Of a stretch of DNA of 64,000 bases, positions 7,767-32,809 are shown piece by piece. Every line of letters begins with the position of its first letter. The stretch's first letter is position 1. Below the pieces are notes generated by a model. It saw only the letters and a list, made by a program, of their open reading frames with translations, was not told the origin of the DNA and did no database searches. Position numbers and translations under genes: made by a program. The DNA is from Patescibacteria group bacterium (lineage in GTDB: Bacteria > Patescibacteriota > Patescibacteriia > Magasanikbacterales > GWA2-37-8), in NCBI GenBank assembly GCA_041661385.1, contig JBAZUP010000001.1, forward strand, positions 640,907-704,906. Reading direction: 5' to 3'.

Positions 7767-8975
7767 TTACTTCTTCTCCCCCGTTGTGGTGAGCCTCGCG
7801 TCTTCGGCCACCTTTACGCGGTCGAATACATAAACGCACTTCTCACCTTCGGCAGCGCCGCAGGGGTTGTCTTTCCTCTCCTTCACTTTCACCCAGTGAC
7901 CAGTGTCCTTGAGGACGCTGATCTTGGGCACATCGAGCCGGATCTTTTCTTCCACCTTCGGTTCAGGCTTCACTTCAACCTTCACCTCGGGCTTCTTGCT
8001 TGCAAGCTCGATGTCTGCAACCTTCAACGCGGAATTCACGTCGTACACGCAGTCAACAGCGACCACGCCAACGACACCGAGTGAAGAGTTGTTTGAAAGG
8101 CCGAGCCCTACACCAAGCGCCTTGTCGGCGGCATAGTTTGCAGCTCCGCTCGAGCTACCCCCTTGGCCATCTTGGCCGACCGTGAGGTAGACCTGATGAC
8201 CGTAGACGGTGACAATCTTGCGATTGAACGGAGCCGGGATGAGAACCTCATCCACCAGGAACGGCTTTTCATTGTCGAAACCATCGAGCATGCCGTGCAT
8301 CGTCTGCACGCGAACACCCGTCTGCCACAGACCAAAGATCTGTGGAACATGAGCATTGCGCTCGAATGGGCGAACCATGACCCTACGGCCGCAGTCGCCC
8401 ATCTTCTCGAGACGAACACCGCCCATGGCGATGGTGGTCGGAAGCGACGGCGGCTGCACCGGGAAGAAAGTGAGCTCCCGGCTGTTGTCGACATTGGTCG
8501 TGGTCTGATTGACCACCGCACCTCCGCCATTGCCGGAGTTTTCCACCTTCGCCTTGCCGCCCTCAGCGTTTCCGCCAGTTGCATTTCCGCCGGCAGCATT
8601 GCCACCCGCGCCACCAGCACCTCCTTGCGAGGTGGAAGAAGACGAGGCGTCGCCTGTCCTCACATCTCCGGTATGAACCGAAGTGTTCTGGTCACCAGTG
8701 GTGGAGGTCGAGGTAGAACCCGACTGTGCGTTGCCGCCAGTTGCCGTCGAAGCAGAGTTCGACGCCGAGTTGGCATTCGCGGTGACCTGTTGATTCTGGT
8801 CTTGAGACTGATGTTGGTTCTGATCCTGCTTCTGGTTCTGAGTCTGGGTCTGATTCAGGTTGCACGGCTTTCCCTTGGGGTGGCCGTGCTTTTCATCATC
8901 GCAGGCGAAAGCCGACGAAACGAAAAGGAATTGAACGAAAACCGCGAACACTGCCGCAAGCATCTTTTTTGACAT
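7767..8975 (-). CDS. GC-rich secreted protein of unknown function, Gln/Asn/Gly/Ser-rich low-complexity N-half (compositional island A)
   Basis: ATG at 8975 preceded by GGAGG (8983-8987 complement); MSKKMLAAVFAVFVQFLFVSSAFA signal peptide; strong GC3 codon bias unlike flanks; ORF-track start 9047 is an upstream in-frame alternative. Confidence 0.55.
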   Translation of the reverse strand: MSKKMLAAVFAVFVQFLFVSSAFACDDEKHGHPKGKPCNLNQTQTQNQKQDQNQHQSQDQNQQVTANANSASNSASTATGGNAQSGSTSTSTTGDQNTSVHTGDVRTGDASSSSTSQGGAGGAGGNAAGGNATGGNAEGGKAKVENSGNGGGAVVNQTTTNVDNSRELTFFPVQPPSLPTTIAMGGVRLEKMGDCGRRVMVRPFERNAHVPQIFGLWQTGVRVQTMHGMLDGFDNEKPFLVDEVLIPAPFNRKIVTVYGHQVYLTVGQDGQGGSSSGAANYAADKALGVGLGLSNNSSLGVVGVVAVDCVYDVNSALKVADIELASKKPEVKVEVKPEPKVEEKIRLDVPKISVLKDTGHWVKVKERKDNPCGAAEGEKCVYVFDRVKVAEDARLTTTGEKK

Positions 8976-9255
8976 CGAACTGCCTCCGTGGGTGAAAATC
9001 GATTGACCATCAACTTTCTTCATTGCGCAATTGTTGCTTTTGCACAACTGAAGATTCTATCATTTTTTTACCATATTGTCAATGATATATCGATATATTT
9101 AACTGAGCTCCAATCGTATTATCAACCGTAGAATTACCCCAAATCACTTAAAAACCGCCCTTACTTGGTTTATGCACCCTGTTCTACCCTTGATTTTTCA
9201 AAATATTTATGCTATTCTAGTCAAACAAAAATTGATGTTTTTACGCTAATAAAGC

Positions 9256-9358: not shown

Positions 9359-9484
9359 GGAGATGAGATTCGAATGGGAAAGGGAGAAAACGGGAGTTTT
9401 TTCTTGATGAGGAAAGCCCACGAAAACCCGAACGGTTTTCGTGAGAGCGAAGCGAGTTCGAATCTCCGATCGCCGCTTTGTTAG
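9359..9484 (+). repeat. tRNA-3'-associated structured element, copy 1
   Basis: begins ggagatgagattcgaa (inverted copy of the tRNA-Ser T-arm and 3' strand). It contains hairpin agaaaacgggagtttttct, core TGATGAGGAAAG, and hairpin GAAAACCCGAACGGTTTTC (9422-9440). It ends gagttcgaatctccgatcgccgctttgttag, a direct copy of the tRNA 3' end and trailer. Confidence 0.6.
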
Positions 9485-9626: not shown

Positions 9627-9763
9627 GTGAATGATGAGATTCGAACTAAAGATGGAAAGAAACGAAGTTTCTTTCGTGCTGAGGAAAGTTCACGAAAACC
9701 CGAACGGTTTTCGTGAAGCGAATGAAATGAACGTGTTCGAATAGCGAAGTGCTCACCCTCTCC
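9627..9763 (+). repeat. tRNA-3'-associated structured element, copy 2
   Basis: gatgagattcgaac (inverted T-arm) ... gaaagaaacgaagtttctttc hairpin ... TGCTGAGGAAAG ... GAAAACCCGAACGGTTTTC (9694-9712) ... gtgttcgaata...ctcaccctctcc (direct 3' acceptor copy). Confidence 0.6.
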
Positions 9764-9770
9764 ACCAAAA

Positions 9771-9806
9771 CAACGACTCTCTTGTGTGGGTCGTTGTTTT
9801 TGTTTT
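9771..9806 (+). terminator. rho-independent terminator
   Basis: caacgac-tctcttgtgtggg-tcgttg followed by tttttgtttt. Confidence 0.6.
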
Positions 9807-11206: not shown

Positions 11207-12271
11207 ATGACAAAAAAAATAAATGTCGCGATTTTATTTGGCGGCAAGTCAGCCGAACATGAAGTGTCGCTTCGTTCGGCAAAAAATGTTATCGAGGCGC
11301 TCGATAAAAGTAAATTTAATCCGATTCTGATTGGTATTGATATAACCGGACACTGGCTTTTAAATGAAAATTCTCGTGAGCTTCTCGAGCACAACATCCC
11401 CCAGGAAATAGCTTTGTTGCCGGAACACCAGGGAGAAATGATAAATTTTTCAGATCTTAATAAAAAACAAAAAATTGATGTTGTTTTTCCAATTTTGCAC
11501 GGACCGTTTGGCGAAGACGGTACCGTCCAGGGGCTCTTAAAATTGGCGGATGTGCCGTTTGTTGGCGCTGGAGTGCTTGGTTCCGCGATCGGCATGGATA
11601 AGGATGTTATGAAAAGATTACTTCGTGATGCCGGACTCCCGGTTGGCAAATTTATAACTTTTAAAGATTTTGAAGTTCCAACCTATAAAAAACTTACCGA
11701 CGAACTCGGTTCGCCATTCTTTATTAAACCGGCCAATCTTGGTTCTTCAGTTGGCGTTCATAAAATAAAAAACAAAATCGGATATGAAAAAGCGCTTGCC
11801 GATGCTTTTCAATACGATCGCAAAATTATTGCCGAAGAATTTATTGAAGGCAGAGAAATTGAGTGTGCGGTTCTTGGCAACGAAGAACCGATTGCCTCAA
11901 CGCCTGGCGAGATTATCGTCAACAGCGAATTTTATTCTTATGAAGCGAAATATCTAGACGACAAGGGCGCAACTCTGCAAATTCCAGCGAAACTTTCCAA
12001 CGAACTCAGCGCGGAAATTCAATATCTTGCCGTTCAAACTTTTAAGACTCTTTGCTGTGAAGGTTTGGGTCGGGTAGATTTTTTTCTGAAAAAAAACGGG
12101 AAGGTGCTCATTAACGAAATCAACACCATCCCGGGTTTTACTTCTATTTCAATGTATCCCAAACTCTGGGAAGAAAGCGGTTTAAAATATTCTGAATTAA
12201 TTACCCGTCTTCTTGAACTAGCTATTGAACGCTACCAGAAAGAATCTAAACTTAAAACTGCCCGCTCTTAA
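11207..12271 (+). CDS. ddl: D-alanine--D-alanine ligase
   Basis: KINVAILFGGKSAEHEVSLRSAKNV N-terminus, ATP-grasp motifs, C-terminal EINTIPGFT. Confidence 0.9.
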   Translation: MTKKINVAILFGGKSAEHEVSLRSAKNVIEALDKSKFNPILIGIDITGHWLLNENSRELLEHNIPQEIALLPEHQGEMINFSDLNKKQKIDVVFPILHGPFGEDGTVQGLLKLADVPFVGAGVLGSAIGMDKDVMKRLLRDAGLPVGKFITFKDFEVPTYKKLTDELGSPFFIKPANLGSSVGVHKIKNKIGYEKALADAFQYDRKIIAEEFIEGREIECAVLGNEEPIASTPGEIIVNSEFYSYEAKYLDDKGATLQIPAKLSNELSAEIQYLAVQTFKTLCCEGLGRVDFFLKKNGKVLINEINTIPGFTSISMYPKLWEESGLKYSELITRLLELAIERYQKESKLKTARS

Positions 12272-16110: not shown

Positions 16111-16464
16111 CTACCCGACCACCCCGACAGCTTCGGGGTAAAGAGTCTCGGGGTCGGGCCAGAGGGCCTCATTCACGTCGGCAAGCAAATCACCGAACGA
16201 AATTTCCCTCTCGGGATAGATGCGGTCCGGCTCGAGCCGCACGTAGCCAAGCCGATTGGCCAAAATGACCACATAACGGTGCTTGCCGCTCTTGTTGTAG
16301 ACCGCGAAGGTGAGTCCATCCTTGGTCCCGAAGGTCCCGCCAACCCCGAACTTCCCGGGGATCTTGGCCTTCACTGCCGCAGCGAGTCCGTCCGTTCCGA
16401 AGAACGAAAGCCAGCAAAAGTTTTCGCCAGCCTCAGCAACAGCCACTCTGATGTTAGTCTTCAC
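16111..16464 (-). CDS. GC-rich hypothetical protein (island B)
   Basis: 117 aa; extreme GC3 bias versus flanks; GC-rich hairpins 16031-16056 and 16070-16086 just downstream. Confidence 0.45.
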   Translation of the reverse strand: MKTNIRVAVAEAGENFCWLSFFGTDGLAAAVKAKIPGKFGVGGTFGTKDGLTFAVYNKSGKHRYVVILANRLGYVRLEPDRIYPEREISFGDLLADVNEALWPDPETLYPEAVGVVG

Positions 16465-16864
16465 GTTTTGACTCCTTGTTACTGGGTTTACCCGCCTAGA
16501 AAAGAACGATTTTTAATATTCCAGACCTTTTTATGTGTCTGGAGTGTGGTTTGTTTTGCAAAACACACCTCAAAACATAAAAATGCATAAAAAATCACCC
16601 TTTTTTGAAGGGTGATTATAGTTTTATCGATAAGCGCTACTTCTTAGGCATTTTCAAAAACATAATCACCCCTCTTATAAAAGAAGGCCCAGAAGCTAAA
16701 ATACTGTTGTGATTGATTATGTTTCATAGATTGAATTAAATTTACCCTAAACTTTAGGGGGCGTCAAGTGTGGATAAAATGCCGATAAACTTCAAACTAA
16801 TTTGGAGCTTAATAGGTTGGCAGAGATTAAGCCCTCTGCCATGGCTCCGTCGAAACGGAATGAG

Positions 16865-17185
16865 CTACTTCATAGGGCTCTTGCTGAAGAACCCCTCGCA
16901 GGTTAGGCTGAACAAATAGGCAGCCTCGCTGACCTTGAGATTCGTTCCAGCCTTGAACGAAAGAAGGTTGCCGCCGGAAAACCGGCCCCTCATTCGCGCC
17001 TCGCGCAATTTCTCGATCGTCCCCTCGTCATCGGGCTTCAGTGCACCCGACGCGCACAGCTGCCCCAGCTTGTTGAGCGCTGTCGCTTCATCAGGATCGA
17101 GCACCTGATGAAACACCCCGTAGAAAGATTCGTTCCTGAGCATCGAATCGATCATGAACTTCTGAATCACCGCCGCGTCAATCAT
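16865..17185 (-). CDS. GC-rich hypothetical protein (island B)
   Basis: 106 aa; same compositional class; hairpin ggcagag-attaagccc-tctgcc 16819-16840 downstream. Confidence 0.45.
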   Translation of the reverse strand: MIDAAVIQKFMIDSMLRNESFYGVFHQVLDPDEATALNKLGQLCASGALKPDDEGTIEKLREARMRGRFSGGNLLSFKAGTNLKVSEAAYLFSLTCEGFFSKSPMK

Positions 17186-17224
17186 CGAACTTCTCCTTGT
17201 GAGAGTAAATACAGTTGCTGTGAA

Positions 17225-17590
17225 CTACTTCTTGCTCGCTCGGGAGCTGATCCGCTCGAGGCCGGGCCACACGTTCTTCATGAAGAGTTCCGGCTTGAAG
17301 AACTTGACCGGACGCAGCACGATGGTACGCGCCGCCTCCCTCTCGACCTCCGAGGAGTTTCTGGGGCTATACCAATAACCCCGCTGGATCGCCTTGTGAA
17401 CCATGTCGAGGTCCTCGTCGCTCACGATGATCCGTGACCGATTGGACATGTCGACGAATTCGTCGAGAGACTTCACGACGTTCTCGTCAATCTTCGGCTT
17501 GAAGATGATGAGAAGCCGCTTGGTCACCCGAAGGGAATTCTGCAGCTCAGTGAGAGCCATGTCTTCTGTCTGGAACTGTCCATTTCCCAT
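17225..17590 (-). CDS. GC-rich hypothetical protein (island B)
   Basis: 121 aa; 40-bp gap to next island gene; no recognisable domain. Confidence 0.45.
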   Translation of the reverse strand: MGNGQFQTEDMALTELQNSLRVTKRLLIIFKPKIDENVVKSLDEFVDMSNRSRIIVSDEDLDMVHKAIQRGYWYSPRNSSEVEREAARTIVLRPVKFFKPELFMKNVWPGLERISSRASKK

Positions 17591-17675
17591 TTATTTTACC
17601 CCTTTTTGATGTCTGCCGAGATATTCAGCGGACTAAGAATTCTATCAAAAAAATGGGTTTTTGTCAATGGAAGCC

Positions 17676-17797
17676 GAGGGGAATCGCACTGCTCGGCCTT
17701 CGGCCTGCGCTTTGAGAAACCGTTCGGGTTTCTCAATACTCATCCTCAGCAAGTAAGAGGGCTCGCTGCCCTCTTACCATCTCCCCGTGCGATTCCC
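17676..17797 (-). repeat. tRNA-3'-associated structured element, copy 3 (downstream of tRNA-Cys)
   Basis: read on minus strand: gggaatcgcac (inverted tRNA-Cys T-arm) ... gtaagagggcagcgagccctcttac hairpin ... TGCTGAGGATGAG ... GAGAAACCCGAACGGTTTCTC (17714-17734) ... gagcagtgcgattcccctc (direct copy of the tRNA-Cys 3' end). Confidence 0.6.
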
Positions 17798-17807
17798 AGA
17801 CACAAAT

Positions 17808-17838
17808 AAAAAGATACCTTTTATAAAGGTATCTTTTT
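17808..17838. terminator. perfect palindromic hairpin, bidirectional terminator
   Basis: aaaaagataccttt-tat-aaaggtatcttttt, 14-bp perfect arms flanked by A/T runs; sits between tRNA-Cys 3' end and element copy 3. Confidence 0.6.
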
Positions 17839-17843
17839 ATTTG

Positions 17844-17915
17844 AGGCCCGAGTGGGAATCGCACCCACGCATAGGGGTTTTGCAGACCCCTGCCTTACTG
17901 CTTGGCTATCGGGCC
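17844..17915 (-). tRNA. tRNA-Cys (anticodon GCA)
   Basis: GGCCCGA...TCGGGCC acceptor with discriminator U, anticodon loop CTGCAAA, T-arm GTGGGTGCGATTCCCAC. Confidence 0.9.
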
Positions 17916-25686: not shown

Positions 25687-27102
25687 ATGACAAACATTGA
25701 AGTCTGGCAGGCTGTTTTGGCCGAATTAGAGCTTTCTATCTCTAAAGCAAACTTTATTACTTGGTTTAAAAATACAGGAATTATCGCAAACCAGCAGGGT
25801 CAGGTGCTACTTTGTGTACCAAACGCCTTTACTAAGGCCTGGCTTGAAAAGAAATATCACGCCCAAATCGTGAAATCACTAGAACGAATTACCGGTAAAC
25901 CAATAAAAAAGGTAGAATACAAGATTGAAAATATCAAAAACGTTGCTGAACAAACGGAAAACGAACCGGTTTCTGACCTCAACCAAGCCACCCAGCAAAA
26001 AAGTGAAGCTTTTTCTCAAACTCCTTCATCTCCTAGTGAACCACTTACGCGCCCCCTTCCAGTCAATGGTGGTTTTTCAATCAATCCAAAATACACTTTT
26101 GAGAGTTTTGTTGTTGGTAAAGGCAGCGAACTTGCTTACGCGGCTGCCCAAGCAGTTACCTCAAGGCCTGGCGAGTCCTACAATCCATTATTTATATATG
26201 GCGGAGTTGGTCTTGGAAAAACTCACCTTATTCAAGCGGTAGGCAATGCGTTACTTAAGAAAAATCCTCGGATGAACATTATGTATGTTAGCGCGGAGAA
26301 ATTTTCTAATGATTTTATTTCTTCTATTAAAGAAGGTGCCGCCCGCGACTTTCAGAATCGTTATCGTCATATTGATTTGCTTCTTATTGACGATATTCAA
26401 TTTATCGCCGGTAAAGACCGAACTCAAGAATCTTTTTTCCACACCTTTAATGAACTCCACCAACAAAATAAACAGGTTATAATAACCTCCGATCGTCCAC
26501 CCAAAGCAATTCCAGCACTTGAGGATCGCCTTAAGTCGCGTTTTGAGTGGGGAATGATTGCCGATGTTTCAGCTCCTGATTTTGAAACCCGCACCGCGAT
26601 TTTAGAAAAAAAATGCACCGAAAAGAACTTTCCTTTACCAATTAAGATTTTGGAATTAATAGCGGTTACTATTCAAAGCAATATTCGTGAATTAGAGGGC
26701 GCTTTGAATAAAATTATCGTTTTTCACCAACTCAAGAACATTCCTCCTTCTCTAGAATCTGTTAAAGTCTTGTTGTCTAGCGCAACGTCTAATTCCGGTC
26801 GTCGTTCGCTTTCTCCAACTCAATTAATTGATGTGGTAGCAGACTTTTTTTCGCTAAGTAAAGAGGAATTAACCGGTAAAAAGCGAGAAAAAAAGATCTC
26901 TACACCAAGACAAATTATCATGTACTTGATGAGAGAAGAGTTAAAAATGTCTTACCCAGCAATAGGGGAGGAGCTTGGGGGGCGAGACCACACCACCGCG
27001 ATGCATGCACATGAGAAAATTAAAGACGATTTAGAGAAGTTTCCACAGGTTGGAAAAGACTTAAGTGAAATTAGACAGCGCTTGTTTGTTAATAACGTTT
27101 AA
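25687..27102 (+). CDS. dnaA: chromosomal replication initiator DnaA
   Basis: 471 aa; Walker A GGVGLGKTHL, sensor/box VII, C-terminal DNA-binding domain (KKISTPRQIIMYLMRE...TTAMHAHEK). Confidence 0.95.
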   Translation: MTNIEVWQAVLAELELSISKANFITWFKNTGIIANQQGQVLLCVPNAFTKAWLEKKYHAQIVKSLERITGKPIKKVEYKIENIKNVAEQTENEPVSDLNQATQQKSEAFSQTPSSPSEPLTRPLPVNGGFSINPKYTFESFVVGKGSELAYAAAQAVTSRPGESYNPLFIYGGVGLGKTHLIQAVGNALLKKNPRMNIMYVSAEKFSNDFISSIKEGAARDFQNRYRHIDLLLIDDIQFIAGKDRTQESFFHTFNELHQQNKQVIITSDRPPKAIPALEDRLKSRFEWGMIADVSAPDFETRTAILEKKCTEKNFPLPIKILELIAVTIQSNIRELEGALNKIIVFHQLKNIPPSLESVKVLLSSATSNSGRRSLSPTQLIDVVADFFSLSKEELTGKKREKKISTPRQIIMYLMREELKMSYPAIGEELGGRDHTTAMHAHEKIKDDLEKFPQVGKDLSEIRQRLFVNNV

Positions 27103-27118
27103 AATTTGTTAATAACAC

Positions 27119-27378
27119 TGTTGATAAAGATGTTGATAAACTCTTAATAAGGCCAAATAATAATCCACAGTAGAAATTTTTTAAGACTTACTTATCCACA
27201 CTAAAAATATTTAATCTAACTTATCAACACTTAGACGATAAACTACTAACAAAAAATATTTTTTTTACCCACACGGTTTTCCGCTCTGATTAAAGTAAAT
27301 TTCGACTTATCCCACCTTTCCACACCCCTTATTATTATTAATTCAATATATATATAAATAATTAGTATACTATTAATA
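27119..27378 (+). promoter_or_regulatory. oriC candidate: DnaA-box cluster plus AT-rich unwinding element between dnaA and dnaN
   Basis: TGTTGATAA x2 (27119, 27131), TTATCCACA (27192), TTATCAACA (27221), TTATCCCAC (27307); aattcaatatatatataaataatt AT-rich DUE 27331-27378. Confidence 0.7.
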
Positions 27379-27388
27379 GACGTGTTGT

Positions 27389-28513
27389 ATGAAAATTTCT
27401 TGCACCAAAGAAAATCTAACACAGGCTCTTACATTGGTAAGTGGGGCGACTGGTAAAAATATTAACTTGCCAATTTTAAATAACATCCTAATTAAAGTTT
27501 CTGAAAACAAAACTGAATTTATAACAACAAATTTAGAACTTGCTGTAATAGTAGTGGTAAGAGCAAAAATAGAAGAAATTGGATCTTTTACTGTTCCTGC
27601 TAGAACCTTAACAGATATAGTTAATCTGTTACCAAATGAAAATATTCAATTTTCTGTTAAAGATAATGAATTAATAGTTACTTGTGGAAAATCATCAACA
27701 AAAATAAAAGGCACCCTAGCAGATGATTTCCCGATAATTCCATCTCTACCAACCGGAAAAGGGTATTTATTGAATGCGGTTTCTCTAAAACAGGGGCTTT
27801 CTGATGTTTTATCATCAGCGGCGAAAAATGATATTAGGCCTGAATTATCGGGTATTTTCTGTTATTTTGATACAAATGAAAAAAGAGTTGTTTTGGCCGC
27901 GACAGATAGTTATCGATTAGCTGAGAAAAAAATTAAATTAGAACAAGGAGATGAAGAATTAAAAATTATCATCCCCGCAAAAAGCGCCCAAGAAATTAAT
28001 CATTTACTTAATACAACCAGCGAAGAAGGAGAAAAAGAAAAAAACGCCAAAATTTTAGTAGGGGACAATCAAATTGTTGTTTCTTTTAATAATGCTCAAA
28101 TTATTTCGAGGCTAGTTGAGGGTCAATATCCGGATTATACACAAATCATCCCCAAAGACTTTAATATTATAATAACAGCTGATACAGAAAAATTTATTAA
28201 GGAAATGAAGGCGGCTGGTCTTTTTACTACAACCGGTGTAAATTCAATTGCATTAAATATAAAAGCAAAAACTGGTGTTGTGGAAATTTCATCAGTATCA
28301 AGCCAAACCGGTGAATATAAATCAGAATTGCAAACTGAAATAAAGGGCGGAGATGGAACGATTATGTTGAATAATAGATATGTACTTGATGGTTTAAATA
28401 ATTTTAACAGCGCCGAGTTACAGTTGAAAATAATAAATGCTGATAGTGCTTGTGTGATAACTCCAAAAGGAGATGAAAGTTATTTGTATATTGTAATGCC
28501 GATCCGACAATAA
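27389..28513 (+). CDS. dnaN: DNA polymerase III beta sliding clamp
   Basis: 374 aa immediately after dnaA; three-domain clamp architecture. Confidence 0.9.
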   Translation: MKISCTKENLTQALTLVSGATGKNINLPILNNILIKVSENKTEFITTNLELAVIVVVRAKIEEIGSFTVPARTLTDIVNLLPNENIQFSVKDNELIVTCGKSSTKIKGTLADDFPIIPSLPTGKGYLLNAVSLKQGLSDVLSSAAKNDIRPELSGIFCYFDTNEKRVVLAATDSYRLAEKKIKLEQGDEELKIIIPAKSAQEINHLLNTTSEEGEKEKNAKILVGDNQIVVSFNNAQIISRLVEGQYPDYTQIIPKDFNIIITADTEKFIKEMKAAGLFTTTGVNSIALNIKAKTGVVEISSVSSQTGEYKSELQTEIKGGDGTIMLNNRYVLDGLNNFNSAELQLKIINADSACVITPKGDESYLYIVMPIRQ

Positions 28514-32598: not shown

Positions 32599-32735
32599 TT
32601 GTGGACCATGTGGAAGCGAACTCGTACTGCTTTGGCAGTACTCTTTGGAAAACCTTCGGGTTTTCCAATACCTTTCCTCGGCAAGTAGGAAAATTCTTTT
32701 CCTACCACCTTTGGTTCGCTTCCGATTGTTAATTG
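32599..32735 (-). repeat. tRNA-3'-associated structured element, copy 4 (downstream of tRNA-Ala-TGC)
   Basis: read on minus: cggaagcgaacc (inverted) ... gtaggaaaagaattttcctac hairpin ... TGCCGAGGAAAGG ... GGAAAACCCGAAGGTTTTCC (32647-32666) ... gagttcgcttccacatggtccacaa (direct copy of tRNA-Ala 3' end ggttcgattccgacatggtccacaa). Confidence 0.6.
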
Positions 32736-32809
32736 TGGACCATGTCGGAATCGAACCGACGGCCTCCGCGTTGCAAACGCGGCGCTCTAGCCAGCTGAGC
32801 TAATGGCCC
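32736..32809 (-). tRNA. tRNA-Ala (anticodon TGC)
   Basis: GGGCCAT...ATGGTCC acceptor with G3:U70, anticodon loop TTTGCAA. Confidence 0.9.

Follow-up and report, generated by a model that had tools for sequence, protein, structure and literature searches.

What is the block of exact inverted repeats that lies between the tRNA-Cys gene and a GC-rich island in the genome of a Patescibacteria group bacterium (GenBank assembly GCA_041661385.1, contig JBAZUP010000001.1), and does it mark the place where the island came in? The block occupies positions 17676-17797, on the minus strand, of the 64,000-nt stretch of this contig that was analysed (hereafter the window), where it is one of four copies designated E1 to E4, E3 being the copy under study; L-numbers designate related or matching contigs and genomes outside the window. 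In the initial annotation, E3 was seen as one copy of a repeated element trailing tRNA genes, with covarying hairpins, and as the marker of an island junction or insertion hotspot. The former view is borne out by the family and its covariation, and the latter has to be abandoned. The element family is real and apparently undescribed, and the interpretation favoured here, in which our confidence is about evenly balanced, is that of a small non-autonomous element inserting at tRNA 3' ends, the tRNA-sense strand of which would fold, most likely as RNA, into a four-way junction.

All the motifs by which E3 had been described are present on the minus strand, within about 120 bases whose inverted repeats are all exact and whose predicted fold reaches -64 kcal/mol (z = -7.4 vs. 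shuffles). From 17797 to 17676, the 5' half reads GGGAAUCGCAC-GGGGAGAUG-(GUAAGAGGGC AGCGA GCCCUCUUAC)-UUGCUGAGGAUGAGUA and the 3' half (UUGAGAAACC CGAAC GGUUUCUCAA)-AGCGCA-(GGCC GAA GGCC)-GAGCA-GUGCGAUUCCC-CUCGGCUUC. The outermost parts make up the closing helix P1, of which the 5' arm, GGGAAUCGCAC (17787-17797), is an inverted copy of the T-loop and T-stem 3' strand of tRNA-Cys, as given by the inverted repeats and an arm-to-tRNA score matrix, and the 3' arm, GUGCGAUUCCC (17679-17689), forms together with the following CUCGGCUUC (17670-17689 in all) a direct, degenerate copy of tRNA-Cys from the T-loop through the acceptor 3' strand, this right arm scoring best against its own tRNA. The 11-mer GGGAATCGCAC is thereby met in the 5' arm (17787-17797), as its complement in the 3' arm (17679-17689) and once more within the tRNA-Cys T-arm (17854-17864); counted with 1 mismatch tolerated, its 5 occurrences in the window compare with a chance expectation of 0.88, a count of 5 being reached by 0 of 100 shuffles. 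Between the arms come the joiner J1/2, GGGGAGAUG (17778-17786), purine-rich and GGGAARG-like in all aligned copies, then the hairpin P2, GTAAGAGGGC/GCCCTCTTAC (17753-17777), with 10 bp and the loop AGCGA, supported by the inverted repeat and by covariation, and the joiner J2/3, UUGCUGAGGAUGAGUA (17737-17752), in which alignments reveal the conserved motif YGAGGA(A/U)RG. The hairpin P3, TTGAGAAACC/GGTTTCTCAA (17712-17736), also an inverted repeat, is the most conserved part of the element, with the consensus RRAAACC-YGAA(N)-GGYUUYY. In the remaining region, 17690-17711, which is near-identical in L033 and in one of the two copies of L006 (L006a), minimum-energy folds give the joiner AAAGCGCA, the small hairpin P4 (GGCC-GAA-GGCC, 17695-17705) and GAGCA. 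The 13-mer TGCTGAGGATGAG (17739-17751), a part of J2/3 that had been proposed as a motif common to the copies, is found only in E3, the shared motif being YGAGGA(A/U)RG.

The same plan was first seen for E1 and E2 by BLAST and sequence reading, and a covariance model of the element core (R1) revealed E4 as a window copy additional to those noted earlier. R1 retrieves 10 distinct copies with 56-92 bits (E 1e-12 to 1e-21), the next match scoring 17.5 bits; outside the window, it finds 6 further distinct copies, on four other contigs of Patescibacteria type, its matches being those of L002, L006 (two), L025, L026, L027 and L033. On the plus strand, E1 (9359-9476; 90.3 bits), whose arms match the tRNA-Ser T-arm, sits between the genes of tRNA-Ser(UGA) and tRNA-Ser(CGA), and E2 (9627-9766; 92 bits) follows tRNA-Ser(CGA) and a hairpin and precedes a terminator (9767-9800). 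On the minus strand, E4 (32601-32725; 63.4 bits) starts 9 nt after tRNA-Ala(UGC) (32735-32809), in a series made of a promoter-like site (32850-32822), the tRNA, E4 and a terminator (32594-32574), with no terminator between tRNA-Ala and E4. The copies of L025, L026 and L027, also after tRNA-Ser(CGA), are diverged orthologues of E2, that of L033 follows tRNA-Cys, and in L006 one copy comes after tRNA-Gly(UCC) and the other has no adjacent tRNA. In other words, 9 of the 10 copies lie 9-50 nt downstream of a tRNA gene on the same strand, their partners being tRNA-Ser(UGA), tRNA-Ser(CGA) in three contigs, tRNA-Cys in two genomes, tRNA-Ala(UGC), tRNA-Gly(UCC) and an unidentified tRNA in L002. The window belongs to a metagenome-assembled Patescibacteria genome with a 779-kb contig, contained in the samples SRR18595301, SRR6484324 and ERZ27249449, and the polA products closest to its own are 70-75% identical. 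The hosts belong to a clade in which the nearest named polA relatives are labelled Magasanikbacteria. The L002 contig is itself labelled Gammaproteobacteria, with genes that look, by their appearance, typical of a small-genome bacterium of the candidate phyla radiation (CPR).

Regarding distribution, a strict-pattern scan of 185,579 species genomes returned one true match (L002) and one chance match within a coding gene, and a metagenome scan returned 20 loci, of which only those of L006 and L017 are real, the rest being a coding gene and a CRISPR spacer. No match came from two scans of the IMG/VR viral contigs, nor from phage and plasmid collections searched by blastn. Rfam scanning of the whole window at gathering thresholds gave tRNAs only, and permissive Rfam scans of the four window copies (E <=10; E4 <=1) gave scattered, low and unrelated matches over the tRNA or palindrome, without proximity to the gathering threshold for HEARO, Y-RNA-like, SRP, hammerhead, twister, twister-sister, pistol or hatchet families. 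ARAGORN found just seven true tRNAs in the window, and the Rfam tRNA and tmRNA models no match over the element at the same permissive thresholds. In the literature on tRNA-trailer elements, CPR non-coding RNAs and T-loop repeats, no description of this element was found; the group I introns reported in Patescibacteria tRNA genes lie in the anticodon loop and are unrelated to it (PMC13011429).

Several side observations relate to individual copies. Two Logan contigs from short-read assemblies of this genome, L023 and L024 (corresponding to window 17716-15873 and 17745-16277), end inside E3, at or beside P3, presumably on account of P3 being repeated in the genome. In L002 (5330-5400, minus strand), a partial second copy, which belongs to the other sequence subtype, directly follows the full element and consists of P3, AGCGAAGCGA and the tRNA 3' end, which is thereby present a third time. 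The tRNA-less element of L006 (11240-11420, minus strand) keeps its palindrome, and the place of the tRNA is taken by ~400 nt of GC-rich, internally repetitive, non-coding DNA without Rfam match (11420-11860, minus strand). In E2, the 3' arm (9740-9750) is split by the 9 nt AGCGAAGUG, and since these repeat the AGCGAAG joiner motif, there is a hint from the sequence that E2 may be a fusion of two successive insertions.

Every copy follows a common plan, that is the closing helix P1, P2, P3 and a small P4, connected by conserved purine-rich joiners, among them YGAGGAAAG and AGCGAA; their order is GGGAARG-like before P2, YGAGGA(A/U)RG before P3 and AGCG(A/C)A before P4, with GAGGA invariant across 9-10 copies. 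The P1 5' arm is the reverse complement of the T-loop and T-stem 3' strand of the local tRNA, sometimes of the acceptor 3' strand too, and the 3' arm is a direct, partly decayed copy of the same 3' region. The arms accordingly differ with the partner, reading GAGATTCGAA (Ser), GGGAATCGCAC (Cys), GGAAGCGAAC (Ala) or TGGATTTGAAC (L002), and both arms score highest against their own tRNA, save for the shared Ser and Cys T-arms. P2 varies in sequence with its pairing kept and its 5' strand always purine-rich, and P4 varies in length from 2 to 7 bp. Since P2 and P3, each with its preceding joiner, look alike, an internal tandem duplication is suggested by their sequences.

The helices are maintained by covariation. 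For P2 and P3 together, 89% of the cells pair and 11 of 18 pairs are changed on both sides, the covariation score of 0.517 comparing with 0.289 in shuffles (0/500 reach it) and 0.13-0.25 with slid partners. Taken alone, P2 has 6 of 8 pairs changed on both sides and P3 5 of 10, with 93-94% of its cells pairing; in P1, 87% of the cells pair and 6 of 11 pairs are changed on both sides. The arms of E4 have changed jointly (GGAAGCGAAC/GUUCGCUUCC), departing from the GUUCGAUUCC of the tRNA, and therefore the pairing of arm to arm is itself maintained. In 9 of 9 copies, the antisense strand gives the poorer fold; the sense strand makes use of G-U pairs and has a purine content of 60-65%. Each copy is thus demonstrated, by comparative sequence evidence, as a predicted four-way junction whose helices are kept by compensatory change. 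Two other identities of the core were considered and rejected. As a diverged or reverse-complemented tRNA it fails, the likeness to tRNA being confined to the arms and the joiners measuring 3-17 nt vs. 0-2 nt in a tRNA. A conserved small open reading frame (ORF), beginning with the AUG that follows a GGGGAG-like joiner in E2, E3, L006a and L025, is ruled out by the frames, which differ relative to the conserved motif, and by the lack of an AUG at this place in E1, E4, L002, L006b and L033.

Besides its fold, the element is characterised by its boundaries. The 3' arm also takes in the acceptor 3' strand and, for E1 and E4, another 9-12 nt of tRNA trailer, and the unit therefore lies between 20-45-nt direct repeats of the tRNA 3' end, whose extent varies: 23 nt with 1 mismatch in L033, ~33 nt in E4, where the repeat is cleanest (GTTCG.TTCC.ACATGGTCCACAAT), and ~45 nt in E1. 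Filled and empty sites can be compared at tRNA-Cys, where the order H+-PPase, LysM/M23 peptidase, tRNA-Cys and polA is kept in nine related genomes. There, the element is present in the window and in L033; the tRNA is directly followed by polA in L028 and L036, and by a terminator in L029, L030 and L031; the tRNA is inverted in L037; and islands are present without the element in L025 and L034. The window tRNA-Cys is identical to that of L036, whose site is empty. The tRNA-Cys genes of L029 and L033 are likewise identical, and as L029 has a sole terminator, whose alignment to L033 is better with the distal terminator (score 15) than with the proximal one (6), L033 has an extra 174 nt, which comprise the palindrome H0 described below, the element and the 23-nt direct repeat. 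At the serine tRNAs, E1 is absent from L025, whose two tRNA-Ser genes are 19 nt apart without an element; behind tRNA-Ser(CGA), the window and L025 have a copy, and L028, L034 and L036 have none. In L002, a full copy and then the 3' half of a different subtype follow one tRNA. These sequence comparisons establish the element block as a direct-repeat-flanked presence/absence difference at otherwise identical tRNA genes. The inserted DNA, of 110-175 nt, contains no integrase and no conserved ORF, and the genes next to each copy have housekeeping functions.

In the window, the tRNA that supplied the sequence of the E3 arms, through its T-loop and 3' part, is tRNA-Cys(GCA), located at 17843-17915 on the minus strand (ARAGORN; Rfam tRNA, 62.2 bits). 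Its T-loop, UGCGAUU, also found in L028, L029, L033 and L036, has a G at the near-universal U55 (pseudouridine) position, the T-loop being UUCAAUU in L025 and UGCAAUU in L034 and L037. Between this gene and E3 lies H0 (17803-17843, minus strand), an AT-rich inverted repeat which is indeed a perfect palindrome as annotated, with arms of 19 nt (17803-17821 and 17825-17843) around a 3-nt loop rather than the 14-nt arms first placed at 17808-17838, so that it reaches the last base of tRNA-Cys. A 12-nt perfect inverted repeat (17787-17798/17853-17864) is centred on it. H0 has the shape of a bidirectional terminator, its 3' arm ending in UUUUUAUUUG, and is not called by a simple terminator scan, its T-run lying inside the stem and its G-C pairs numbering just 3. 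A hairpin of this common design is found upstream of 7 of the 10 copies, including the copy without tRNA, and on this account the H0-type palindrome probably belongs to the inserted unit.

Is E3 then tied to the island that it adjoins? Island B (16111-17590, minus strand) consists of three GC-rich small ORFs (17590-17225, 17185-16865 and 16464-16111) and an AT-rich leader module. E3 does directly abut it, as had been noted: a strong promoter-like site of the island, outside the element (17667-17639, minus strand; TTGACA-17-TAGAAT with an extended TG, 11/12 matches), begins 9 nt past E3, and the first ORF starts at 17590. The tRNA-Cys/polA spacer is also the variable spot that it seemed to be, with GC-rich islands of small ORFs in the window, L025 and L034, and such ORFs upstream of polA in L032, whose contig starts inside them. 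As to E3 marking an island junction, the relatives say otherwise. L025 and L034 carry an island without the element, and the element is found away from any tRNA-Cys, at tRNA-Ser(UGA), tRNA-Ser(CGA), tRNA-Ala(UGC) and, in L006, at tRNA-Gly and at the tRNA-less site, both of which findings had been named beforehand as refuting that idea; and L033, which has the element at tRNA-Cys, has none of the ORFs of the window island, just ~390 bp holding a single, unrelated ORF of 67 aa coming after the element there. At its far (polA) end, island B has no copy of the tRNA-Cys 3' end; direct repeats of a tRNA 3' end, of the kind left by attachment (att) sites, thus exist for the element and not for the island. 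Because islands occur with or without the element, the element occurs elsewhere without island, and the far-end repeat is lacking, element and island are independent. By their sequence arrangement, they are separate tenants of one tRNA-Cys/polA spacer, and the only junction marked by the element is that of its own insertion. Exact-protein look-ups for strain variants without island B gave just window-identical fragments or the same arrangement.

The spacer ORFs are of interest in their own right. Numbering one to three per genome (window 16111-17590; L025 8809-9887; L032 9-1093; L034 1060-2111; L033 979-1182), they are small, with 55-60% GC in genomes of ~40% GC, come in sets that differ by genome and have no Pfam match; they look like cassettes of unknown origin. 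Those of island B have no convincing PHROG match either. Two of the window ORFs, wA and wC, are matched in L032 by homologues with 30% and 41% identity, a homologue search with wC returned just the protein itself, and the ORFs of L025 are unrelated to the families of the window and L032. The AT-rich leader module is common to all three (window 16600-16780, minus strand; L025 8570-8700 and 9190-9320; L032 ~480-620). It has a Shine-Dalgarno site and a mini-ORF of 7-8 codons (MFLKMPKK*, MFVRMPKK*, MRAKSKE*), without Rfam match, and its ATAATCACCC can pair alternatively with the upstream GGGTGATTAT, over the mini-ORF start, or with the downstream GGGTGATTTTTT in a terminator; these pairings give it the look of an attenuator coupled to translation, placed before each GC-rich small ORF. 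Elsewhere in the window, a second GC-rich patch (7767-9047, minus strand; 58% GC) just upstream of the tRNA-Ser pair encodes a low-complexity, secreted-type product of 418-426 aa, rich in Gly, Ala, Ser, Asn and Gln and without significant Pfam match, and looks neither like an RNA gene nor like a mobile element. The replication origin is probably inside the window, since dnaN (Pfam, 27389-28513), a probable dnaA ORF (25687-27102) and the minimum of the cumulative GC skew lie there (25687-28513).

If the element inserts at tRNA 3' ends as proposed, it would target the T-loop and 3' end of tRNA genes without damage to the tRNA, whose 3' end would then be present again on the far side, usually with the H0 palindrome travelling along. 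The tRNA-sense strand would fold as RNA, made together with the tRNA where no terminator intervenes, as for E1 and E4, and arising elsewhere by read-through, and a trans-acting factor would recognise the fold. The matching arms may stem from copying of the target or, more speculatively, from template-switch correction of a quasi-palindrome formed with the tRNA, that is the tRNA 3' part, H0 and the inverted arm. A bolder version, rather doubtful at present, is a class of tRNA-homing mobile elements with programmable arms, copied from or pairing with the T-loop and 3' end of the invaded tRNA, in which the choice of target would be made by nucleic-acid pairing; this pairing might proceed via a four-way-junction RNA or single-stranded DNA with a trans-acting enzyme, or via catalysis by the RNA itself. 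Several points weigh against the interpretation favoured here. A moving element would have to acquire arms specific to each new tRNA, and the presence/absence pattern is equally explained by precise loss if the direct repeats recombined. Genes for a recombinase, transposase or reverse transcriptase are missing beside all copies as well as among the 20 window ORFs checked. The P1 covariation is partly built in, as both arms derive from one tRNA, independent compensatory change being met in E4 only. With a strong terminator-like palindrome between tRNA and element in 7 of the 10 copies, read-through would be limited, which leaves room for a role as single-stranded DNA, and a search for a convincing promoter of the element's own found none. 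Finally, the sample is small, with ~10 copies from ~5 genomes.

Among known systems, miniature inverted-repeat transposable elements (MITEs) such as Correia/NEMIS, ERIC/IRU and RUP are of similar size: they are non-coding units of ~100-150 nt that fold as RNA, multicopy within a genome, often co-transcribed with neighbouring genes, and their terminal inverted repeats, common to all copies as the sites that the transposase recognises, close a stem-loop. Here, in contrast, the terminal repeats are not family-wide, each being copied from its own adjacent tRNA, the flanking repeat is 20-45 nt of tRNA instead of a 2-10-bp target duplication, and the site is always a tRNA 3' end. The msr-msd non-coding RNA of retrons is likewise closed by terminal inverted repeats (a1/a2) round internal hairpins; yet no reverse transcriptase follows any copy of the element, and its repeats are tRNA-derived. 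What lies downstream is a tRNA (E1), terminators (E2, E4, L033, L006) or island ORFs without Pfam match (E3). As for omega or bridge RNAs, whose genes stand at the end of an element that codes for their nuclease or recombinase too, no gene for a TnpB/IscB nuclease or an IS110-type recombinase is found beside any of the 10 copies.

The alternative that deserves most attention, while still unlikely, is a non-mobile family of host small RNAs, processed from tRNA precursors and serving the cell, with vertical inheritance and repeated loss; such RNAs might bind a protein through the two purine-rich GGA-type joiners, or mimic a part of the tRNA towards a tRNA-handling enzyme. In its favour, L025, with a polA product 70% identical to that of the window, shares the tRNA-Ser(CGA) copy, in which compensatory changes have taken place, E1 and E4 stand within tRNA transcription units, and the two tandem units of purine joiner plus hairpin resemble a dimer-binding site. 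Small RNAs of tRNA trailers do exist, e.g. the 3' external transcribed spacer of glyW-cysT-leuZ in E. coli, which are non-coding RNAs in the spacer or trailer of a tRNA unit freed by processing; those known, however, are short, largely unstructured sponges kept at one locus, whereas the element is a four-way-junction module that is repeated and patchily distributed, with arms derived from tRNAs. This patchiness is seen among close relatives with identical tRNAs, the majority of tRNAs and of relatives being without the element; at one tRNA of L002, two subtypes stand in succession, one copy has no neighbouring tRNA, and the direct repeat reaches past the tRNA into the trailer in E1 and E4, which is the mark of a duplication or insertion rather than of convergent design. 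Catalysis is another function that an RNA of this shape could have: a self-cleaving, hammerhead-like molecule (CUGAGGA plus GAA) might process the tRNA precursor or the element itself. Many small ribozymes are associated with repeated, possibly mobile units, of which the element would be one, and its branched junction has conserved unpaired purines, including a CUGAnGA-like string and GCGAA. Nevertheless, this is hardly probable at all, as no hammerhead, twister, twister-sister, pistol, hatchet, HDV or hairpin ribozyme is matched at the permissive thresholds above. The hammerhead interpretation of CUGAGGA...GAA in particular was ruled out by this lack of Rfam ribozyme match together with stem geometry: stem II would not begin after A9, the P1-P2 junction is 7-9 nt instead of 1, and C3 is U in E1.

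The two remaining alternatives place the element at the level of DNA. A folded single-stranded recombination site, in the manner of the integron attC or the CTX phage attP, formed by the tRNA-sense DNA strand, with P1 mimicking a double-stranded T-arm and a recombinase acting in trans to exchange strands at it, is improbable. In its favour, the layout of site, spacer, inverted site, cargo and site corresponds to the topology that integration of a folded hairpin site would leave, and as in attC and attP the strand-specific fold is kept by structure more than by sequence. Besides, terminator-like hairpins bracket most copies, arguing against strong transcription, several loops are of the C-GAA-G or GCGAAGC type, which forms a very stable DNA mini-hairpin, and ~175 nt are too few for a unit that moves as a double-stranded circle. 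On the other hand, GNRA-type loops (GGGA, GUGA) suit RNA equally well, no integron-type or Xer-type recombinase is near any copy, no integron integrase is encoded among the window ORFs checked, there is no cassette array, and the target is a tRNA T-loop. The 3' arm, starting GTTCGAA or GTGCGAT, departs from the attC boxes (RYYYAAC...GTTRRRY), with C or G-C at the fourth base where R-R-R is expected, the arm GTTCGAA being at odds with the R' consensus, and the orientation relative to the dnaA/dnaN origin is inconsistent, E3 running with replication and E1, E2 and E4 against it, in a tiny sample (n=4). Still less likely, and in fact largely refuted, is that the copies are scars of integrase-mediated island integration, the tRNA 3'-end copy being an attR or attL remnant and the rest a leftover island end. 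A duplicated tRNA 3' end is the hallmark by which integration into tRNA genes is recognised, E3 touches island B, and islands or prophages with tyrosine integrases, which use sublocations in the T-loop or anticodon loop, resemble the element in inserting at the tRNA 3' part with the tRNA left intact, in the decaying 3'-end copy on the far side, in their fixed orientation relative to the tRNA, and in the filled and empty sites among relatives. Unlike them, the unit is just ~110-175 nt without integrase or any gene, no integrase is nearby, and an extra inverted copy of part of the tRNA is present. An integrase family normally keeps a single attP core, whereas one ~90-nt element core with covarying helices occurs at six different tRNAs or more, and independent deletions would not have yielded one and the same remnant at all of them. 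The missing far-end repeat of island B, the islands without element in L025 and L034 and the copies without island (E1, E2, E4, L006b) point the same way.

To return to insertion of a small non-autonomous element at tRNA 3' ends, the element explains assembly breaks as well as tRNA 3'-end duplications that are easily misread as att sites of islands, as happened here, and the covariance model provides a direct means to survey the family. A fold tailored to its target combined with insertion at tRNA ends is not known from MITEs, tRNA-integrating islands or any Rfam family, and raises the mechanistic question of the origin of target-matched arms. If this interpretation is true, the very small genomes of Patescibacteria would harbour a very short element without genes which enters tRNA 3' ends again and again with the tRNA unharmed, and which keeps a conserved four-way-junction fold with a closing helix tailored to each target tRNA.

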